A stretch of 6,400 bases of DNA from a virus, in IMG/VR virus record IMGVR_UViG_3300000304_000116, positions 1-6,400 of that record; one strand, written 5' to 3'. Within the stretch, counting starts at the first letter, position 1. Every line of letters begins with the position of its first letter. Shown in pieces: positions 1 through 6,400 of the stretch. The translations under genes were made by a program, and so were the position numbers. The notes below the pieces were generated by a model. The model was given only the letters and a program-made list of their open reading frames with translations, searched no databases and was not told the DNA's origin.

Positions 1-54
1 CTGTCCCTATGTTTATTCTCGTGCCTTGCGGTAAATGTGAATTGTGTCTTGACA
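1..54 (+). repeat. Terminal overlap copy 1 (identical to 6347-6400); signature of a circular genome, unit length 6,346 nt
   Basis: CTGTCCCTATGTTTATTCTCGTGCCTTGCGGTAAATGTGAATTGTGTCTTGACA occurs at both window ends, compared base by base. Confidence 0.95.
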
Positions 55-1199
55 AGAAGAAAAAAGAATGGTCATTTCGTGCTCATTGTGAAAATTCTAC
101 TTCTACTAGCGTTCCTTTATTCCTTACTCTTACATTCGCTCCCAAGAATTTGCCTAAACGTGGTGTTCAGAAGGAAGATGTTCAATTATTCATGAAAAGG
201 CTGCGTATCAGGTTAGACCGTATGGGAATACAGCACAATATCCGTTATTTCTTTTGCGGTGAATATGGTCATAACAGTAAGATGCCTCATTATCATGGCG
301 TTCTATGGAATTTCCCGCGTGAGCAGTTTCCAACTCTACATGCTTGTTTGGATTTTATAGAAAAGTGTTGGTGTCACCCTTTGTATGATCGCTACGGAAA
401 CGCTCTTTACAATAAAGATGGCTCGCCCCTGACCGAGCAGTTAGGATTTTGTTATATCTCCCCTGTACAGTTTGATCCGAAAAGAAACACCGGTCGCGGT
501 GTTATCGGTTATGTTATGAAATATATGGCAAAAAAGGCTGTTGTTCCCTATGGCAAGAATCCAGTGTTTTATTTGTCATCCCGTAAAAATGGTGGTTTAG
601 GTGCAGAATATGCCCGTAAGATGGTATCTTTTTATATAGATAACCCTGATTGTGTTGAGATGTCTGTATATGATCCTTATAGTTGCAAGAATGTTTGTGC
701 GTTTATGCCCCAGTATTTTCGGAACTTATATTTTCCTTCACTCTCACGGATTGTAGGTTCTGAGATTCATAAGGTTTGGCAGAAATACGTCCAGGCAATG
801 CATGACTTGCACTATTTGTGTCGACATACTGGTTATAAGCCTCAGTATATAGGTCTTGATTTGAATTTAGCTCGTAAGTTTTCATTTTTTCCTGAAAAGT
901 TTACCGAACAGTATTTGTTTCCTTCTTGTGAGATTGGAAATATGATTTATCGTGATGCTCCTGACGATTTTATGTTCGGCACTATATATAAATTAGAGGA
1001 AGATTTGGTTTGCCTTCGTCAGCAGCTTTTGGATTTTGAGCCTGACTATAAGCTAATCGACACTTCTCAGAAGTGCAAGGAAATAAGAGAGGCTTTTATG
1101 CTTAGGTATTTTAAGGACAAAAAAGAGATAGATTTAAATAGTGTTAAAAATAGTATAATCTATCAGCAGAATCTTACATATGTTAGAGAAAAGGTGTAA
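1..1199 (+). CDS. VP4: Rolling-circle replication initiation protein (Microviridae VP4 / phiX174 A-like HUH endonuclease), C-terminal 399 codons; continues from 6112..6346 across the circular junction (full protein 477 aa)
   Basis: The reading frame is continuous across 6346|1 (positions 1-2 complete the codon ACT begun at 6346). HUH motifs read directly from the translation: motif I FLTLTF (120-137), motif II HYHGVLW (288-308), and motif III double-Tyr YVMKYMAKK (510-536, with the Y-x-x-K-Y spacing I recall for phiX174 protein A). Cys cluster CGKCELC at 27-47. Stop TAA at 1197-1199. The ATG at 9 is an internal Met. Confidence 0.9.
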   Translation, partial: VPMFILVPCGKCELCLDKKKKEWSFRAHCENSTSTSVPLFLTLTFAPKNLPKRGVQKEDVQLFMKRLRIRLDRMGIQHNIRYFFCGEYGHNSKMPHYHGVLWNFPREQFPTLHACLDFIEKCWCHPLYDRYGNALYNKDGSPLTEQLGFCYISPVQFDPKRNTGRGVIGYVMKYMAKKAVVPYGKNPVFYLSSRKNGGLGAEYARKMVSFYIDNPDCVEMSVYDPYSCKNVCAFMPQYFRNLYFPSLSRIVGSEIHKVWQKYVQAMHDLHYLCRHTGYKPQYIGLDLNLARKFSFFPEKFTEQYLFPSCEIGNMIYRDAPDDFMFGTIYKLEEDLVCLRQQLLDFEPDYKLIDTSQKCKEIREAFMLRYFKDKKEIDLNSVKNSIIYQQNLTYVREKV

Positions 1200-1244
1200 A
1201 CTTGTAGTATAAGAAATAAATATAATAATATTAAACATTACACT

Positions 1245-1457
1245 ATGAAATTTCAAAGATATTTTGTTAGGCTTATTGATTCCGATAAGACGTTTGTTTG
1301 TTCAAAACGTCAGTTATTGAGTTTTATTTTGAATCATTATAACTGGCCGTTGAGGATTATTCCCCTTGATTCGGACGGTAATCTTGTACACGGTTTTTCT
1401 TTTGTTGTTGGTGATGAATATACTATTTCTTTTTTGTTTAATGATAAAAACATTTAG
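1245..1457 (+). CDS. Hypothetical small protein (70 aa)
   Basis: ATG-started ORF in the Rep-to-VP1 gene slot, same strand as all other genes. Its TAG stop (1455-1457) lies 2 nt before the next ATG, giving operon-like packing. AT-rich leader without Shine-Dalgarno. I recognise no motif. Confidence 0.55.
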   Translation: MKFQRYFVRLIDSDKTFVCSKRQLLSFILNHYNWPLRIIPLDSDGNLVHGFSFVVGDEYTISFLFNDKNI

Positions 1458-1459
1458 TT

Positions 1460-1651
1460 ATGAAAAAATTACCTTATCATGCACATCTTGAAGTGTACGA
1501 TGACGACCGTACTACCAAGATTATTGAGTTGGAACTTGGTTCATACGGAAGTATGCGCCAGTTAGAAGATATGCGTGTTCAGTTGCAGAGTTGCAACCCG
1601 CAGTATAGTGTAGTGTTGATCGTGCGTAGTGATGATTTCGAACATGAATAG
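1460..1651 (+). CDS. Hypothetical small acidic protein (63 aa)
   Basis: ATG at 1460, 2 nt after the previous stop. Its 3' end overlaps the next ORF's candidate starts (ATG 1632 and ATG 1644; stop TAG 1649-1651). I recognise no motif. Confidence 0.55.
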   Translation: MKKLPYHAHLEVYDDDRTTKIIELELGSYGSMRQLEDMRVQLQSCNPQYSVVLIVRSDDFEHE

Positions 1652-1832
1652 TTGCGAACGCACACTTAGGTACATCGCCATCATATTGGCGGTGTGCCTT
1701 ACTGCATTATTAGTTACACAATGTACTGTAACAATATGCACAATGAAAAATTCAAAGGACTCTAAATTTCACGTGGAACAGTCCGCAAGCGGCTCGGCTG
1801 ATTCCGCAAGTGTTAACTCAAACGTAAATTAA
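1632..1832 (+). CDS. Small single-pass membrane protein (66 aa from ATG 1632; alternative ATG 1644), candidate lysis or membrane-acting protein
   Basis: Basic N-terminus (CERTLRY), then a ~23-residue hydrophobic stretch YIAIILAVCLTALLVTQCTVTIC (1671-1739), then a hydrophilic Ser-rich tail. Stop TAA at 1830-1832 is 1 nt before the VP1 ATG. The track start at 1629 is GTG; the ATGs at 1632 or 1644 are more plausible. There is no canonical lipobox (Q at position -1 of the Cys). Confidence 0.55.
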   Translation: MISNMNSCERTLRYIAIILAVCLTALLVTQCTVTICTMKNSKDSKFHVEQSASGSADSASVNSNVN

Positions 1833-1833
1833 T

Positions 1834-4038
1834 ATGGCAGATATTTTTTCAGCTACTAATGAAAGACGCAATAGTGTGCCTACAGCCACTTTTGATTGGT
1901 CACACGCTGTTCATACTACTACTGACTTAGGTAGAATTACTCCTGTGTTTTGTGAGCTTGTTCCTGCTAAGACATCCGCTCGTATCAATGCGAAGTTAGG
2001 ATTTCAGTTTATGCCTATGGTATTTCCTCTTCAGTCGAGGATTCGTTACCGCCTGGCATTCTTCAAGTATCCGCTCCGTGCCTTATGGACTGATTACCGT
2101 GATTTTATCGGTAATTTTAGGCAGGATTTGGAAGAGCCTTATATAGATTTTGGTACTACACCTCCCTCTACTGGCTCTTTGTGGGATTATTTAGGTTTGC
2201 CTACTACCTTAGTCGGTGAATATGGTTCGTTTTTTGATACTTCCGCTCTTGTTCAGTCCTCTTACATTCCTTTGTCTGAGTCTTATATGCATTCTGCATA
2301 TAATGATTTGGAGTCTTTTTTTGCTGTAGGTAGGCGTACAAATTCATATATTCGTGGTGCTGGTTCTGATGGTATTCCATGTGCTTGGAGTTTGAATAAC
2401 GGTGGTGTATTTTTGTTTGAGTACGATATCCCTGATGATGCTGATTTGTCGAAGTCTGTCATATTTAAGCCTTCTGTTTCTTCATATTTGAACGATACGG
2501 TATACACATTTGTTGATGATGGAGAAACTATACTCTCAGGTAGTTATCTTGCAGGTGCTAACCAAACATTTACTGTTCTTTTCAAAAATGCTGTAGGTGC
2601 GAAGCGTCTATTTATTGCAATTAGATTCACAACTACTGGTACCTCTTGCCCGCCTTCTATTTCTTCCCCTTATGTTGTTGAGCTTGGTTCTTCCAATTCT
2701 TATTTTATCAGTACTAACAATCTTACTGTTACAGTAACTTTCCCGTTGTCTTCAAGTTCTGGTTCAGTATTGGGTCTTTCTGCTCAATCTAACCCTTACT
2801 ATTCCTCTAATAACCCTCTTAAGGAAAAGCAGGTTAAAATATCTGCATATGCCGCTCGTGCGTATGAAGGCATTTACAACTCTTGGTTCAGAGATAACCG
2901 TAACAATCCGTATTACCTTAATGGCCAGGTAGAGTATAACCGCTGGATCCCTAACTATGAAGGAGGCGCAGACCCTGCAAGCAACTACCAGTTGCGATAC
3001 GCTAACTGGGAGCGTGATTTTCTTTCTACCGCTGTTCAGACTCCGCAGCAAGGTATTGCCCCACTTGTCGGCATTACCACTTATGAGGATACTGTTACGC
3101 TTGAAGACGGTACCGTACGCACTGTTAATAAGCTGGCAATTACTGATGAAGATGGAAAGAGTTATAAGATAGGATTTGATTCTGATGATGACGGATTGAA
3201 AGCTGTTGAGTATCAGCCTTTGAATAATGCTCAGACCGTCAAGCCTACTTCGCTCATTCAGCTTGCTCAAAGCGGTATTAGTATTTCCGACTTGCGAAAT
3301 GTTAACGCATATCAGCGTTATCTTGAAATGAATATTCGTGCAGGATATAGTTATAAGGATATTATAGAACATCGTTTTGATGTAAACATAGGATATAACG
3401 AATTGTTGATGCCTGAGTTTATCGGCGGTACTTCCGACTGGGTTGAAATGCACAGTGTTACCCAGACCGTTATGAAAGAAGATAACGGAACTTATGCTGA
3501 TGCCCTCGGTTCTCAAGCTGGTATAGCTGGCGCTAGAAAAGGCACTGAAACTATTAATGTATTCTGTGACGAAGAAAGTATTATTCTCGGTGTTCTTGTG
3601 TTTACTCCCGTACCTATATATACACAGTTGCTCCCCAAGCATTTCTTGTATCGTGGTCTTCTTGATCATTTCGCGCCTGAGTTTGCCAATATCGGATTCC
3701 AGCCGATTCTTATGCGTGAAGTTGCTCCTGTCCAGCAGTGGAGTGCAGACAAGGACAAGATGCTGGATACGTTCGGATATAACAGACCGTGGTATGAGTA
3801 TTGTCAGAAGCAGGATACCGCCCACGGTCTTTACCGTACGCAGTTGCGAAACTTCATTATGAACCGCGTGTTCAACGAAGCTCCTTCACTTAACCAGTCA
3901 TTTTTGCTGGTTGATCCCAGTCAGGTAAATGACGTGTTTGCGGTTACTGAAACTACCGATAAGATATACGGACAGATATATTTTGATGCGAAGTTCAAGC
4001 TCCCGATCCCGCGTGTCGCTATTCCGCGATTGGAATAA
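1834..4038 (+). CDS. VP1: Major capsid protein (Microviridae VP1 / phiX174 F family), 734 aa
   Basis: Blocks that I recall as conserved in gokushovirus-type VP1 are readable: WDYLGLP (2182-2202), RAYEGIYNSWFRD (2857-2895), NWERDFLSTAVQTPQQG (3004-3054), ISISDLRNVNAYQRYLEMNIRAGYSYKDIIEHRFDV (3277-3384). ATG 1834, TAA 4036-4038. Longest ORF in the genome. Confidence 0.95.
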   Translation: MADIFSATNERRNSVPTATFDWSHAVHTTTDLGRITPVFCELVPAKTSARINAKLGFQFMPMVFPLQSRIRYRLAFFKYPLRALWTDYRDFIGNFRQDLEEPYIDFGTTPPSTGSLWDYLGLPTTLVGEYGSFFDTSALVQSSYIPLSESYMHSAYNDLESFFAVGRRTNSYIRGAGSDGIPCAWSLNNGGVFLFEYDIPDDADLSKSVIFKPSVSSYLNDTVYTFVDDGETILSGSYLAGANQTFTVLFKNAVGAKRLFIAIRFTTTGTSCPPSISSPYVVELGSSNSYFISTNNLTVTVTFPLSSSSGSVLGLSAQSNPYYSSNNPLKEKQVKISAYAARAYEGIYNSWFRDNRNNPYYLNGQVEYNRWIPNYEGGADPASNYQLRYANWERDFLSTAVQTPQQGIAPLVGITTYEDTVTLEDGTVRTVNKLAITDEDGKSYKIGFDSDDDGLKAVEYQPLNNAQTVKPTSLIQLAQSGISISDLRNVNAYQRYLEMNIRAGYSYKDIIEHRFDVNIGYNELLMPEFIGGTSDWVEMHSVTQTVMKEDNGTYADALGSQAGIAGARKGTETINVFCDEESIILGVLVFTPVPIYTQLLPKHFLYRGLLDHFAPEFANIGFQPILMREVAPVQQWSADKDKMLDTFGYNRPWYEYCQKQDTAHGLYRTQLRNFIMNRVFNEAPSLNQSFLLVDPSQVNDVFAVTETTDKIYGQIYFDAKFKLPIPRVAIPRLE

Positions 4039-4098
4039 AACTTACTCGGCACTGGAAGAGCCTCCCCAGCGGAGCGACAAACCAGTAGCGTAAACATT

Positions 4099-4314
4099 CG
4101 GACGGAGCATTTTTTTTTAAAACTCGCTCGTATACTGTTTTCGCCTCATGCAAGCGAATTTACGGTCTGTGAAATTAGACTAAAGTTAAATAGAGTTAGC
4201 GCGCGCGCTTCGCGTGCGTTAATTCTTTTTAACTTTTCGTTTTCACAGAACGATAATAAATTCGCATGAGGTGAGAACAGTATGAGCAGTTTTTAAAAAA
4301 AAGTGCGGAGTCCG
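4099..4314. repeat. Long imperfect inverted repeat forming a ~216-nt bulged hairpin in the VP1-downstream non-coding region
   Basis: Hand alignment of the left arm against the reverse complement of the right arm gives these paired blocks: 4099-4103:4310-4314, 4107-4109:4304-4306, T-run 4110-4117:A-run 4295-4302, 4119-4122:4291-4294, 4132-4139:4276-4283, 4144-4151:4264-4271, 4156-4162:4257-4263, 4166-4174:4241-4249, 4182-4190:4228-4236, 4200-4207:4211-4218. The apex is CTT at 4208-4210. Roughly 84 Watson-Crick pairs plus 5 G.T pairs. Confidence 0.85.
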
Positions 4315-4330
4315 CAAACCACATCCACAA

Positions 4331-4371
4331 GAGTATTAACCGCGTTAGGGATTGCAGGCGAGTATTAGCCG
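4331..4371 (+). repeat. 12-nt direct repeat GAGTATTA(A/G)CCG, two copies (4331-4342 and 4360-4371)
   Basis: Read directly; one mismatch; start-to-start spacing 29 nt; lies in non-coding DNA between the long hairpin and the next ORF. Confidence 0.6.
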
Positions 4372-4381
4372 AAGGCTAATA
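4363..4381 (+). repeat. Small hairpin with GAA triloop (TATTAGCC-GAA-GGCTAATA)
   Basis: An 8-bp perfect stem (4363-4370 pairs with 4374-4381) closes on C-GAA-G. This is the core of the very stable GNA-triloop DNA mini-hairpin class, d(GCGAAGC)-like. It abuts or occludes the ATG at 4381. Confidence 0.6.
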
Positions 4382-4387
4382 TGTTTG
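4380..4387 (+). promoter_or_regulatory. Candidate Bacteroidota-type -7 promoter element (TATGTTTG matches TAnnTTTG)
   Basis: Exact match to the TAnnTTTG consensus described for Bacteroides promoters, in non-coding context about 50 nt upstream of ATG 4438. No good TTTG -33 element at 19-21 nt spacing (only ATTG at 4351-4354). About one or two such 8-mers are expected by chance in 6.4 kb. Confidence 0.25.
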
Positions 4388-4437
4388 AGCCGGAAAGCCC
4401 GACCCGTAAGGGTAACGCCCAAATAAAAATCAAAATT

Positions 4438-4740
4438 ATGGCAAACAGAAAATTAGACGGAAACTGCCGCACATGTGCGACCCCGTGGAAAGACACAGAT
4501 TTCAGAAAGACAATCCCGAATCAGGCTATGACACCTAGCCAGATTAAGGAACTTGCAGATAAAGGCATTCCCGTTAGCGGTCAGAATGCCAGCGCGTTGT
4601 ATGATGAGAAAACCGCCGGCTGGAATCTTGATCCTATCTTTGAACGTGGTGCCGATATTTGTCAGCTTTGGGAAACCGAAAAAGCCGCCCAGCGTCGCGT
4701 CTTAGCCGCCAAGAAGCGCGATGCTATGCGATTCAGATGA
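4438..4740 (+). CDS. Hypothetical protein, 100 aa from ATG 4438 (119 aa if from ATG 4381); by position a possible scaffolding or DNA-binding protein, function not established
   Basis: Same-strand ORF whose stop overlaps the VP2 start (ATGA at 4737-4740), implying translational coupling. Basic C-terminal tail AAQRRVLAAKKRDAMRFR. ATG 4438 has an A-rich leader (AAATAAAAATCAAAATT). ATG 4381 sits inside a hairpin and a candidate promoter motif. I see no family-specific motif I can name with confidence. Confidence 0.6.
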   Translation: MANRKLDGNCRTCATPWKDTDFRKTIPNQAMTPSQIKELADKGIPVSGQNASALYDEKTAGWNLDPIFERGADICQLWETEKAAQRRVLAAKKRDAMRFR

Positions 4741-5936
4741 ACGAAGGTTTAGGCTCTTTCCTTGGCGGCTTAGCTGGCGGTTTCGGCTCGTTTATCGGCA
4801 ACCTTGTTGGCGGACGAAGACAGGAAAAGATTGTTGATAAGCAGATAGCCGCGCAGAAAGAAGAAAACCGCATTGCCCGCGAATGGAACCTGAATTTGGC
4901 TAGGATGCAAAACCAATGGAACATTGATCAATGGAACAGAGAAAACCAGTATAATACACCGATTAATCAGCGTAGGTTATTGCGTGAAGCAGGTTTGAAT
5001 CCTGACTTGTATTATGCAGACGGTGCAGGTTCTTCGCTTTCCGCTGCCTCTCCTGAGATGACGGCTGGCGCAGGAACTTCGCCTACTGATGTCAGCGCGT
5101 ACAGCCAGATGCCCAATAATGCAAGACAGGCGGTTCTTGACGCTGCTGTTATCGCTAATTCTTTTGCTGATTTTTCATTGAAAAAGGCTAATGAAAAGAA
5201 AGTCAATAATGAGAGTGATATTCTTTCTATTGAAGCTTTTTACAAAGCTTCTAGAGAGAAGAGCGAAATAAGGCTTACGAACCTGCGCTGCAATCTTACT
5301 GAAGCCGACACAAAACTTTCAGAGAAAGCTGCAGAGGAGAAAGTCGCTGCAATTAATGAGATTAATGCCCGTATCGGACAGATCCGGCAGGATGTTGTAG
5401 AATCACAGTCACGCGTCAAGGTCAATAATGCGACAGTACATGACATCGAAAATCAAGTCATGTGGCGCAATAGGAAAGGCGACAAGGAGATACAGCGTAT
5501 AGATGCTGAGATAGATCGGTTGGCTGCTGCCGCCGGTCTTGACAAGGAAAAGGCTAAAACCATTGTTATGCTTGCAAATGCGCAGGTTAGACATTGGAAT
5601 GTTTCCGACCAGTTAGCATCTGCTGAAACTCGCTTGACTTACCGTGAAATGCGCCTTAAGGATGCCCTTGTAGACATGTCCAAAGCGAAAACCGAAGGAT
5701 TTGTGCTGGATAATGATTTGGTAGAACGTTTCGGCGGCTATGAGAAGTTCGCTCAGATTGCGACTATGTACGGCAACTGTTTGGCTAATATCGGCAATGC
5801 TGCTGGTAATATTGCAACTCGTGGTTTGTCGGATTTTGCCAAAAATGCATTTAAGAAGTCGCGATCTTCGAATAATGCTGTTCCCAATAATGCTGCCCCG
5901 CAGCAGAACCCTTGGAACGGTATGCCGTTCAATTAA
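4737..5936 (+). CDS. VP2: Minor capsid / DNA pilot protein (Microviridae VP2, functional analogue of phiX174 H), 399 aa
   Basis: Gly-rich N-terminus MNEGLGSFLGGLAGGFGSFIGNLVGG. The block NQYNTPINQRRLLREAGLNPDL (4944-5009) matches the YN(S/T)P..Q...(L/M)..AGLNP signature I recall for VP2 proteins. Long charged, heptad-like central region (about 5190-5560) typical of pilot proteins. The track start at 4659 is TTG; ATG 4737 overlaps the upstream stop. Confidence 0.9.
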   Translation: MNEGLGSFLGGLAGGFGSFIGNLVGGRRQEKIVDKQIAAQKEENRIAREWNLNLARMQNQWNIDQWNRENQYNTPINQRRLLREAGLNPDLYYADGAGSSLSAASPEMTAGAGTSPTDVSAYSQMPNNARQAVLDAAVIANSFADFSLKKANEKKVNNESDILSIEAFYKASREKSEIRLTNLRCNLTEADTKLSEKAAEEKVAAINEINARIGQIRQDVVESQSRVKVNNATVHDIENQVMWRNRKGDKEIQRIDAEIDRLAAAAGLDKEKAKTIVMLANAQVRHWNVSDQLASAETRLTYREMRLKDALVDMSKAKTEGFVLDNDLVERFGGYEKFAQIATMYGNCLANIGNAAGNIATRGLSDFAKNAFKKSRSSNNAVPNNAAPQQNPWNGMPFN

Positions 5937-5938
5937 GG

Positions 5939-5958
5939 GCAACACTATTCAGTGTTGC
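5939..5958 (+). repeat. Hairpin immediately after the VP2 stop (GCAACACT-ATTC-AGTGTTGC)
   Basis: 8-bp perfect stem with a 4-nt loop, starting 3 nt after TAA 5934-5936. Possible terminator or processing signal; no following T-run. Confidence 0.6.
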
Positions 5959-5963
5959 GGATG

Positions 5964-5985
5964 GACTGGAGGATATCCTCCAGTC
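5964..5985. repeat. Perfect 22-nt palindrome GACTGGAGGAT|ATCCTCCAGTC
   Basis: Read directly. It can be extended by CGGA (5958-5961) pairing with TCCG (5987-5990) across small bulges. It could form a hairpin in ssDNA or RNA, or serve as a dimeric protein-binding site in dsDNA. Confidence 0.7.
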
Positions 5986-5990
5986 TTCCG

Positions 5991-6022
5991 TAACTTGACA
6001 ATATTAGAGTAACTGACACACC
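5991..6022 (+). promoter_or_regulatory. Candidate plus-strand replication origin / Rep nick region (resembles the phiX174 origin core)
   Basis: TAACTTGACAATATTAGAGTAACTGACACACC compared with the phiX174 origin as I recall it, CAACTTG^ATATTAATAACACTATAGACCAC. Shared ordered blocks are AACTTGA, ATATTA, TAAC and GAC..CAC. It lies in the non-coding gap directly upstream of Rep, flanked by hairpins. Confidence 0.35.
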
Positions 6023-6024
6023 TC

Positions 6025-6049
6025 TGAAAATCAGATAATTTGATTTTCA
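6025..6049 (+). repeat. Hairpin TGAAAATCA-GATAATT-TGATTTTCA upstream of the Rep start
   Basis: 9-bp perfect AT-rich stem (6025-6033 pairs with 6041-6049) with a 7-nt loop; 63 nt upstream of ATG 6112. Confidence 0.6.
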
Positions 6050-6111
6050 TCAGTCTTGCTGAAGTTACGAGGTTATTTTAGATGGTTTAAAAAGATTTTT
6101 AATTCAACACT

Positions 6112-6400
6112 ATGCAGATATATTGTTCTTCACCTCTTGCTATCAGAAACCCGCGCATATTGTATTATGCTCAGCAGTATCAGTGCTATCATACTGAGGT
6201 TGGTTTTCAGAAAAACCCTTTTTACAAGTTATGCATTACAGATTCTTCAAAGAAAGATTTGTTTGTCAGATTTTCGCCTGTACGTCTTGAAGTTACTCAG
6301 GTAAATATAGATAAGTTCTATTTCTTTGATCCTACTACCGGCGAAACTGTCCCTATGTTTATTCTCGTGCCTTGCGGTAAATGTGAATTGTGTCTTGACA
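6112..6400 (+). CDS. VP4: Replication initiation protein, N-terminal part (runs off the window end; 6347-6400 duplicates 1-54)
   Basis: ATG 6112 is the first start after the in-frame TAA at 6100-6102. Hand translation: MQIYCSSPLAIRNPRILYYAQQYQCYHTEVGFQKNPFYKLCITDSSKKDLFVRFSPVRLEVTQVNIDKFYFFDPTTGETVPMFILVPCGKCELCLD. The C-x-S-P-x-x-I-x-N-P start followed by CGKCxxC is the N-terminal pattern I recall for microvirus Rep proteins. It joins in frame to the ORF listed as 9..1199. Confidence 0.85.
   Translation, partial: MQIYCSSPLAIRNPRILYYAQQYQCYHTEVGFQKNPFYKLCITDSSKKDLFVRFSPVRLEVTQVNIDKFYFFDPTTGETVPMFILVPCGKCELCLD
6347..6400 (+). repeat. Terminal overlap copy 2 (identical to 1-54)
   Basis: Same 54-mer as at 1-54. 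It lies inside the Rep coding sequence, so it is a linearisation or assembly overlap rather than a biological repeat. Confidence 0.95.

Follow-up and report, generated by a model that had tools for sequence, protein, structure and literature searches.

Introduction

The intergenic region of the filamentous Ff phages (M13, f1, and fd) is about 500 nt long, and its hairpins mimic a promoter at which host RNA polymerase makes a primer. The ssoA and ssoU origins of rolling-circle plasmids are imperfect hairpins of 130 to 300 nt that also use host RNA polymerase; they are strand and orientation specific, dispensable, and exchanged as cassettes. We know of no mechanism by which the complementary strand is started in microviruses outside the phiX174/G4 group. 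Within that group, the phiX174 primosome site and the G4 complementary-strand origin are hairpins of single-stranded DNA (ssDNA) in the F-G intergenic region that start the complementary strand (PMC9865509, section 3.8), and smaller hairpins have been proposed as minus-strand origins in other microviruses (PMC9865509). Frpo of the F plasmid is an established ssDNA promoter that serves both transcription and primer RNA synthesis (PMC9849209, citing Masai and Arai 1997). Here we describe a long hairpin at positions 4099 to 4314 of IMG/VR virus record IMGVR_UViG_3300000304_000116, a microvirus genome of which we analyzed positions 1 to 6,400 (the window), and we compare it with these systems and with hairpins of other gut microviruses.

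The window hairpin shares with the Ff minus origin its place in a large non-coding region of a small circular ssDNA phage, the presence of several imperfect hairpins, and, as we propose here, action on the packaged strand. However, the window has no sequence similarity to the Ff origin, it forms a single rod of about 90 bp where Ff has two short hairpins, and its box is of a Bacteroidetes type (TAnnTTTG, which we take to be the -7 promoter consensus of these bacteria). The Pfam family matched by the Rep protein of the window, REP_ORF2-G2P, includes the Ff gene II protein. The window hairpin would resemble ssoA and ssoU in the general description given above. The ssoA motifs RSB and CS-6 (TAGCGT/A), as we take them to be defined, are absent; TAGCGC at 4197 to 4202 is a partial CS-6 and is not conserved in L019, L007, or L001 (L numbers denote the compared genomes). 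Frpo is a long stem-loop that rebuilds a promoter in the entering single strand and has imperfections near the melting element, and the window hairpin resembles it in these features. It differs from Frpo, which has sigma-70 -35 and -10 elements and belongs to enterobacterial plasmids, in its TAnnTTTG-like box, in a -33 partner that is weak or absent, and in belonging to a phage replicon. Like the phiX174 and G4 sites, the hairpin lies directly after the capsid gene. Unlike those sites, which are about 55 to 140 nt long and use PriA or DnaG, it is much longer and carries a promoter-like box, and it has no sequence similarity to them. Its membership in any of these origin families is not established. 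By analogy, it is most likely a promoter-mimicking single-strand origin of Bacteroidales-type microviruses.

Results

Structure of the long hairpin

The initial annotation had placed an unusually large non-coding gap after the capsid gene and, within it, a bulged hairpin of about 216 nt. Both were borne out. The gap runs from the capsid stop at 4038 to the next ATG at 4438 (4039 to 4437; 399 nt, 6.3% of the 6346-nt genome), the downstream start being assigned to this ATG because its sequence, ATGGCAAA..., is homologous in relatives. It contains the long hairpin, a small hairpin, and a conserved element of 80 nt (Table 1). At minimum free energy, 4099 to 4314 forms one hairpin that contains 86 Watson-Crick pairs and 6 G.T pairs and is built from inverted-repeat arms at 4099-4132/4281-4314, 4132-4174/4241-4283, and 4182-4207/4211-4236, the last separated by 3 nt. 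The five G.T pairs listed at the outset (4140.4275, 4143.4272, 4195.4223, 4199.4219, and 4203.4215) are all present in the fold, the sixth is 4110.4303, and the fold of 4099 to 4314 contains no A/C 1x1 mismatches.

With DNA parameters, the + strand folded at -69.7 kcal/mol, compared with -27.9 ± 3.6 kcal/mol for dinucleotide shuffles (z = -11.8). With RNA parameters, it folded at -114.3 kcal/mol (z = -13.9). The complement was weaker in both cases (-59.0 kcal/mol as DNA and -89.1 kcal/mol as RNA). A second pair of DNA values, -69.0 kcal/mol for the + strand and -58.2 kcal/mol for the complement, shows the same difference. The two strands are thus unequal in predicted stability, and the + strand is favored with either parameter set, in line with the + strand-specific pairing first described. 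An Rfam scan of both strands gave no credible match: mir-7445 scored 35 bits against a gathering score of 79, and no family reached its gathering threshold. A Flavo-1 match (4334 to 4408; 22 bits versus 42) did not recur in relatives and was dropped.

Related hairpins in other gut microviruses

We found homologous hairpins of 128 to 239 nt in about 45 distinct microvirus genomes. The hairpin recurs in at least four gut microvirus lineages, with a shared layout and differing sequence. A blastn search of the gap against 50,697 phage records matched only 4339 to 4438 and left the hairpin unmatched; a 17-mer of the 5' arm gave chance matches only, and the long hairpins cannot be aligned by BLAST. 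When the hairpins are drawn as two arms, one layout emerges: a base of A/T runs, a TGCA(A) box beside an asymmetric internal loop, GTTAAAT near the apex, and an apex of (CG/TG)n whose loop is rich in T. The most stable local structure lies directly upstream of the 80-nt element, and in the orientation of that element, in nearly every one of the 34 IMG/VR contigs that contain the element and in the GenBank matches.

Lineages A1 (the window, L001, L009, L019, L022, L028, and L035) and A2 (the L007 clade) both carry the hairpin in gene sense, as structures of 170 to 239 nt (62 to 95 pairs) that are all placed alike with respect to the 80-nt element. In lineage B, the hairpins of L002 and L003 are 177 to 199 nt long, and those of the remaining members are mostly 77 to 82 nt. 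Another 35 IMG/VR contigs contain the apex 18-mer of the window without a change, and about 30 of them belong to a separate clade, C, of microviruses that are mostly 5.3 to 5.7 kb long and have hairpins of 128 to 199 nt around the apex. The hairpins of clade C (about 5.5 kb) are on the gene strand, and the genomes lack the 80-nt element; hairpin and element are therefore separable.

In an alignment of eight long hairpins, 88% of the cells are paired; shuffles give 75%, and sliding the partners gives about 50%. Pairs changed on both sides number 22, versus 12.9 expected (0 of 500 shuffles). These compensatory changes support the fold. In L074 (MK765551), a hairpin of this family at 2287 to 2370, TCCAAGGGTT...GTTAAAT...GTTCATTGGA, lies inside a coding sequence annotated at 2206 to 2499 as a hypothetical protein; this open reading frame (ORF) is probably no true gene.

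The module follows the T-rich strand

The hairpin and the element, together the module, are gene-sense in 18 genomes of lineages A1 and A2 but oppose the direction of every gene in 20 lineage B genomes (L002, L003, L006, L008, L011, L012, L014 to L016, L018, L020, L023 to L026, L029, L033, L034, L038, and L039). In lineage B, too, the hairpin lies on the upstream side of the element, and it is the strand of the element that carries the wobble pairs; the long hairpins have 4 to 11 G.T pairs versus 0 to 2 A/C mismatches. The insertion sites number at least two in lineage B (pilot-module-Rep and Rep-module) and two in lineages A, and there has been at least one cross-lineage transfer of the element.

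Composition at 4-fold sites of the coding strand is opposite in the two groups: T is 50 to 72% and A is 11 to 19% in lineages A, whereas A is 43 to 67% and T is 10 to 26% in lineage B. The mean (T-A)/(T+A) at these sites is +0.56 in A and -0.54 in B. The module is always on the T-rich strand, irrespective of gene direction. The coding strand is T-rich in phiX174, Chp2, and SpV4; in phiX174 it is the packaged strand, and we assume the same for Chp2 and SpV4. Judged by this skew, the T-rich strand is presumably the packaged strand. Most simply read, the module always occupies whichever strand is single-stranded for part of the time, which supports a function in ssDNA and argues against one in mRNA.

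A promoter-like box on the 3' arm

The motif ANNTT(T/C)G is present on the 3' arm of 41 of the 43 distinct long hairpins, at 22 to 60 nt (mostly 38 to 46) from the 3' base, and it overlaps an internal loop or bulge in nearly all 41. In 17 hairpins the box is TATCTTTG, an exact TAnnTTTG. The strict form TAnnTT[TC]G is found on the 3' arm of 19 hairpins and on the 5' arm of 9, versus 3 and 1 for the respective complements. The box of L003 is TACTTTCG, those of clade C are CA(G/T)TTTTG or AAGGTT(T/C)G, and that of the window is flanked by the bulges ATAA and GCAA. The -33 TTTG partner is weak or variable.

Clade C has an additional, canonical promoter downstream of the hairpin, TTTG-N19-TATATTTG, which is consistent with Bacteroidetes hosts. 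This separate promoter argues against the box within the hairpin being just a double-stranded promoter for the genes that follow. Given its place on the 3' arm, a polymerase that used the box in the folded strand would copy the 5' arm to the base and then the upstream single strand. This is the direction needed to prime the complementary strand.

The neighboring 80-nt element

Relatives have a small hairpin at the site equivalent to that of the window, between the long hairpin and the 80-nt element. On the minus strand of the window, the same 4304 to 4316 segment reads as a small hairpin, TGCGGACTCCGCA, followed by T8, a terminator-like arrangement at the base of the long hairpin.

The element itself is 77 to 84% identical in unannotated stretches of GenBank microviruses whose capsids are 43% identical to that of the window or have no detectable similarity to it. 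A pattern search of IMG/VR found it in 34 microvirus contigs, and the same pattern had no match in 185,579 species genomes; no Rfam family corresponds to it. In 27 distinct element sequences, 94.7% of the cells pair, compared with 87.1% in shuffles and 31 to 45% when partners are slid. At its fifth pair, P1 has C-G in 15 sequences and T-A in 12, and no sequence breaks this pair; the sixth pair of P2 is T-A in 16, A-T in 10, and broken in 1. The sequences of hp1 and hp2 vary freely, and the hp1 loops are mostly C-GNA-G triloops (GAA, GTA, GGA, and GCA), presumably an extra-stable type of DNA mini-hairpin. The element is an undescribed structured motif with textbook covariation.

Among the nearest capsid relatives of the window (L044 to L060), the element is present in some and absent in others: L055 to L057 have it, and their close relatives L044 to L054 keep only the fragment GAGCGAAGCGGAAAT. 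The element of L012, L025, and L029 is nearly identical to that of L009, L028, and L035, which shows cross-lineage exchange. The element behaves as an exchangeable cassette. Candidate roles are a second single-strand initiation signal, a Rep nick region, or an RNA; with regard to the nick site, the whole element is absent from L044 to L054.

Several further observations concern these regions. L026 (8618 nt) contains two copies of the module, at 1321 to 1360 and 7224 to 7263, together with repeated genes, and the element copies differ at a compensating P1 pair; the sequence is probably a 1.4-unit assembly concatemer. L065, a rodent-faeces microvirus, carries a diverged copy of the 80-nt element and, at 2400 to 2470, a second conserved non-coding block, GGGGTGCTCCCTGTGTAGTT..CCTAAACCCTTAAAG..TCTATGAAAAAATCAATGCAA, which also occurs in the L051 prophage at about 7530 to 7600; the block is post-capsid in both. 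Several lineage B genomes have an ORF of 115 to 173 aa on the module strand, just downstream of the element and antisense to the pilot gene (Table 1).

Genome context

The window is a complete circular microvirus genome. Positions 6347 to 6400 duplicate positions 1 to 54, a terminal redundancy of 54 nt, and the genome is therefore a circle of 6346 nt. Through this redundancy, the Rep start codon at 9 to 11 recurs at 6355 to 6357 (MFILVPCGKCELC...). Every gene in the ORF list of the window is on the + strand.

A megablast search of the whole window against GenBank phages gave no match and thus no close DNA relative. The best GenBank capsid matches are Alpavirinae-like gut microviruses with 47 to 61% identity. 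Capsid relatives at about 60 to 62% were found in IMG/VR, in metagenomes, and in one Bacteroides metagenome-assembled genome (MAG), and searches of IMG/VR and metagenomes with the capsid found nothing closer than about 62% identity. Therefore, the fine-scale evolution of the window hairpin is not traceable. Against 185,579 species genomes, the capsid protein had one match, a Bacteroides MAG contig, and no contig of the assembly index encodes the exact protein.

Table 1. Positions of the hairpin, neighboring structures, and genes in the window, and of module-strand ORFs in lineage B genomes
Feature	Position	Strand	Description
Rep	9-1199	+	Pfam REP_ORF2-G2P, PHROG 942
Three small ORFs	between Rep and capsid gene	+	ORF list
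Major capsid protein	1834-4038	+	Pfam Phage_F
Intergenic non-coding region	4039-4437	+	ORF list; Pfam/PHROG of flanking genes; downstream start homology
Long bulged hairpin	4099-4314	+	outer 5-bp stem 4099-4103/4310-4314; main stem 4107-4306
A/T-run basal stem, T9-AAAACT	4110-4124, pairs with 4288-4302	+	common to long hairpins of other lineages
GTTAAAT box, 5' arm near apex	4185-4191	+	conserved in all A/T-rich long hairpins; columns 101-107 of alignment A2
Apex 18-mer GCGCGCGCTTCGCGTGCG	4201-4218	+	(CG/TG)n stem with two G.T pairs; loop CTT 4208-4210
-35-like TTAACT / -10-like GATAAT	4229-4234 / 4252-4257	+	-10 hexamer overlaps 3'-arm box and ATAA bulge
3'-arm box	4253-4264	+	bulge ATAA 4253-4256, then TAAATTCG 4257-4264
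Small local hairpin TGCGG-AGT-CCGCA	4304-4316	+	competes with outer stem of long hairpin
80-nt structured element	4341-4420	+	P1 4342-4346/4414-4418; P2 4348-4353/4395-4400; P3 4357-4359/4389-4391
Hairpins of 80-nt element	hp1 4363-4381; hp2 4402-4413	+	hp1 loop GAA; hp2 loop GTAA; P1 encloses P2-P3-hp1 and hp2
Small ORF	between capsid and pilot-like genes	+	ORF list
Pilot-like protein	4659-5936	+	gene calls and Pfam/PHROG assignment
Module-strand ORFs (lineage B)	L016 3533-3988; L011 2551-3072; L014 327-674; L038 3200-3547	-	chance or real gene

Discussion

We suggest that the hairpin may be a complementary-strand (minus-strand) origin built as an ssDNA promoter, a reading to which we give even chances from the sequence comparisons. 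The primosome site of phiX174 and the origin of G4 likewise lie after the capsid gene, and this shared position favors such an origin. As in an ssDNA promoter, the module strand has a stable stem-loop that covaries, and the imperfections of the stem lie at the melting element. The circular ssDNA would enter the cell, and 4099 to 4314 would fold into a duplex rod of roughly 90 bp free of single-strand-binding protein. The rod would display the promoter-like box of the 3' arm, TAAATTCG beside the ATAA bulge in the window and TATCTTTG in relatives; the internal loop next to it would leave the box partly melted in advance. The enzyme binding the box would be host RNA polymerase or, with lower likelihood, primase or PriA, and it would copy the 5' arm toward the base of the hairpin. 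The RNA primer left behind could then be extended by host DNA polymerase around the circle. In this scenario, the long hairpin, the small hairpin, and the 80-nt element would form a composite origin-type intergenic region, as in filamentous phages. A complementary-strand origin had been among the first candidate roles proposed for this hairpin, and it is the one best supported by the comparative data, with promoter boxes that are only partly matched.

Several observations weigh against this proposal. The window box, which occupies the same place as the box of relatives, has one mismatch to TAnnTTTG and is fully paired. A sigma-70 scan of 3800 to 4700 found a single site, TTAACT-17-GATAAT (4229 to 4257; 9/12), and shuffles gave about as many. 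The short hairpins of most lineage B genomes lack the box. The apex of the window hairpin followed by its T-run looks like an intrinsic terminator. All that the nearest capsid relatives keep is a (CG/TG)n hairpin of 46 nt, ten bases past the capsid stop, which folds at -15.7 versus -8.8 on its complement and to which the window apex is homologous; in some relatives further away, the capsid gene is followed by no gap at all. Absence from close relatives, which the initial annotation had taken as a sign of recent insertion, was therefore seen in part: some relatives have the short apex hairpin only and some lack the gap. The long form is ancestral to several clades yet dispensable, and it is no recent insertion in the window.

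The strand argument has limits as well. The polarity of the packaged strand in lineages A and B is read from composition. phiMH2K (L041, NC_002643), an isolated Bdellovibrio gokushovirus, is also A-rich at the 4-fold sites of its coding strand (A 0.47, T 0.23, C 0.23, and G 0.07), so that skew alone is no proof of polarity. Lineage B being a single broad lineage by capsid, the match between orientation and skew comes from few independent events. Nor is the G.T asymmetry independent of the skew, because C-to-T pressure on one strand yields both: it would convert G-C pairs into G.T pairs there and into A.C mismatches on the opposite strand, so that the asymmetry can be mutational. It had been offered as a sign of selection on a folded + strand. 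The comparative data do fit a structure of one strand, likely as ssDNA, but the asymmetry is weaker evidence than it seemed, as C-to-T pressure suffices to explain it.

Action at the RNA level is the main rival, a serious one that we nevertheless consider rather unlikely. The hairpin could work in the polycistronic transcript as a terminator or attenuator, as a 3'-end stabilizer after the capsid gene, or as an RNase III site that sets the capsid-to-pilot ratio. The + strand RNA fold is much stronger than that of the complement, G.U pairs are tolerated in + sense RNA, and the GC-rich apex (4192 to 4226) followed by TTTTAACTTT scored as terminator-like. Terminator hairpins follow phiX174 genes, and the window hairpin, directly after the highest-expressed gene, parallels them. 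A GC-rich hairpin begins 10 nt past the capsid stop in the nearest relatives. However, the terminator likeness is not conserved: the apexes of L001 and L009 are A/T-rich, and the L044-type hairpins have no T-run. A rod of about 90 bp far exceeds what a terminator needs, and the conserved box in the internal loop of the 3' arm has no role in one. In lineage B, moreover, the homologous long hairpins of L002 and L003 run antisense to every gene, as does the element, and the wobble pairs fall on that antisense strand. The 3'-arm box could also be an ordinary double-stranded promoter from which the 80-nt element is transcribed into a leader or a small RNA with structure, the palindrome being incidental or regulatory. 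Wherever a long-hairpin genome has both TAnnTTTG and the element, the box points to the element; the covariation of the element is very strong, and a self-contained promoter-plus-RNA cassette could be inserted either way round. We think this quite improbable: it leaves the orientation with the T-rich strand and the embedding in a hairpin of about 200 nt unexplained, clade C has the hairpin and box with no element and with a separate promoter downstream, Rfam gives no match, and the loops of the element are GNA triloops of the DNA type.

The remaining alternatives concern how the hairpin arose or recombines. The long arms might be a selfish or neutral palindrome expansion, or a cassette like a miniature inverted-repeat transposable element (MITE), around a small functional core, the extra 150 nt or so having no function. 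The nearest relatives manage with a 46-nt core, hairpin length ranges from 37 to 239 nt among lineages, and the adjoining element is patchy among close relatives and exchanged between lineages. This is nevertheless distinctly unlikely, given that long forms occur in four lineages with compensatory changes and with internal boxes at fixed distances, in genomes that are otherwise tightly packed. The hairpin occurs once per genome, at a conserved position, and a search that covered phage records, though no bacterial genomes, matched it nowhere else. A recent MITE-like insertion, one of the roles first suggested, is contradicted by the occurrence of the hairpin at the same place in relatives with 43 to 62% capsid identity and by the retention of the apex as the 46-nt hairpin.

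A folded recombination site, also suggested at the outset, fared no better. The folded + strand would be an attachment site of the CTX-phage type that mimics host dif, so that XerC/D could integrate the single-stranded genome. The GTTAAAT box, found as (T)GTTAAAT in the window and at homologous sites in L019, L001, L010, and L002, resembles the outer half of TTATGTTAAAT, which we take to be the XerD-binding arm of dif, and L019 matches it at 10 of 11 positions. A XerC arm to match this box was not found. The best dif-like match in the hairpin, 16 to 17 of 28, is at the chance level seen elsewhere in the window, and hairpin sequences vary widely among phages, although conservation would be expected of a dif mimic. 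There are temperate relatives among the Bacteroidales microviruses, and dif-like sites flank them (PMC3091885). One of the same capsid clade as the window, L051, is a prophage lying in a bacterial contig of 33 kb, with gyrA/TPR on one side and a Usp gene on the other, and is bounded by dif-like sites at 4086 to 4113 and 10775 to 10800 that share AATATCGATTAT. Its junction falls between Rep and the small ORFs, in agreement with PMC3091885, and its post-capsid region is internal and intact; since L051 has the short hairpin only, this is an indirect test. We regard an attachment site as highly improbable.

Lineage B raises a further possibility. These phages might package the strand antisense to their genes and would then be negative-sense Microviridae, with the hairpin serving as an ssDNA promoter for Rep and also priming the complementary strand. 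In genomes of the L015/L016 type, the hairpin is directly upstream of Rep. Rep would be transcribed from the incoming strand before a complementary strand exists, and positive-sense lineages, such as that of the window, would use the hairpin solely as a minus-strand origin. We hold this idea, drawn from base composition and the orientation of the module, to be tentative and on balance doubtful. A literature search on negative-sense or skew-inverted microviruses, and on Alpavirinae hairpins, found nothing relevant.

A complementary-strand origin of this kind would be previously undescribed for gut microviruses. Large intergenic regions of microviruses have been left unannotated or mis-called as ORFs, as in MK765551. 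The strand-bound, promoter-like hairpin offers a concrete candidate for how the complementary strand may be started in the abundant Bacteroidales microviruses of the gut. If our reading is true, the module would also be a sequence-based marker of the packaged strand, and if that marker is right, one whole microvirus lineage would be opposite in polarity to the definition of the family.

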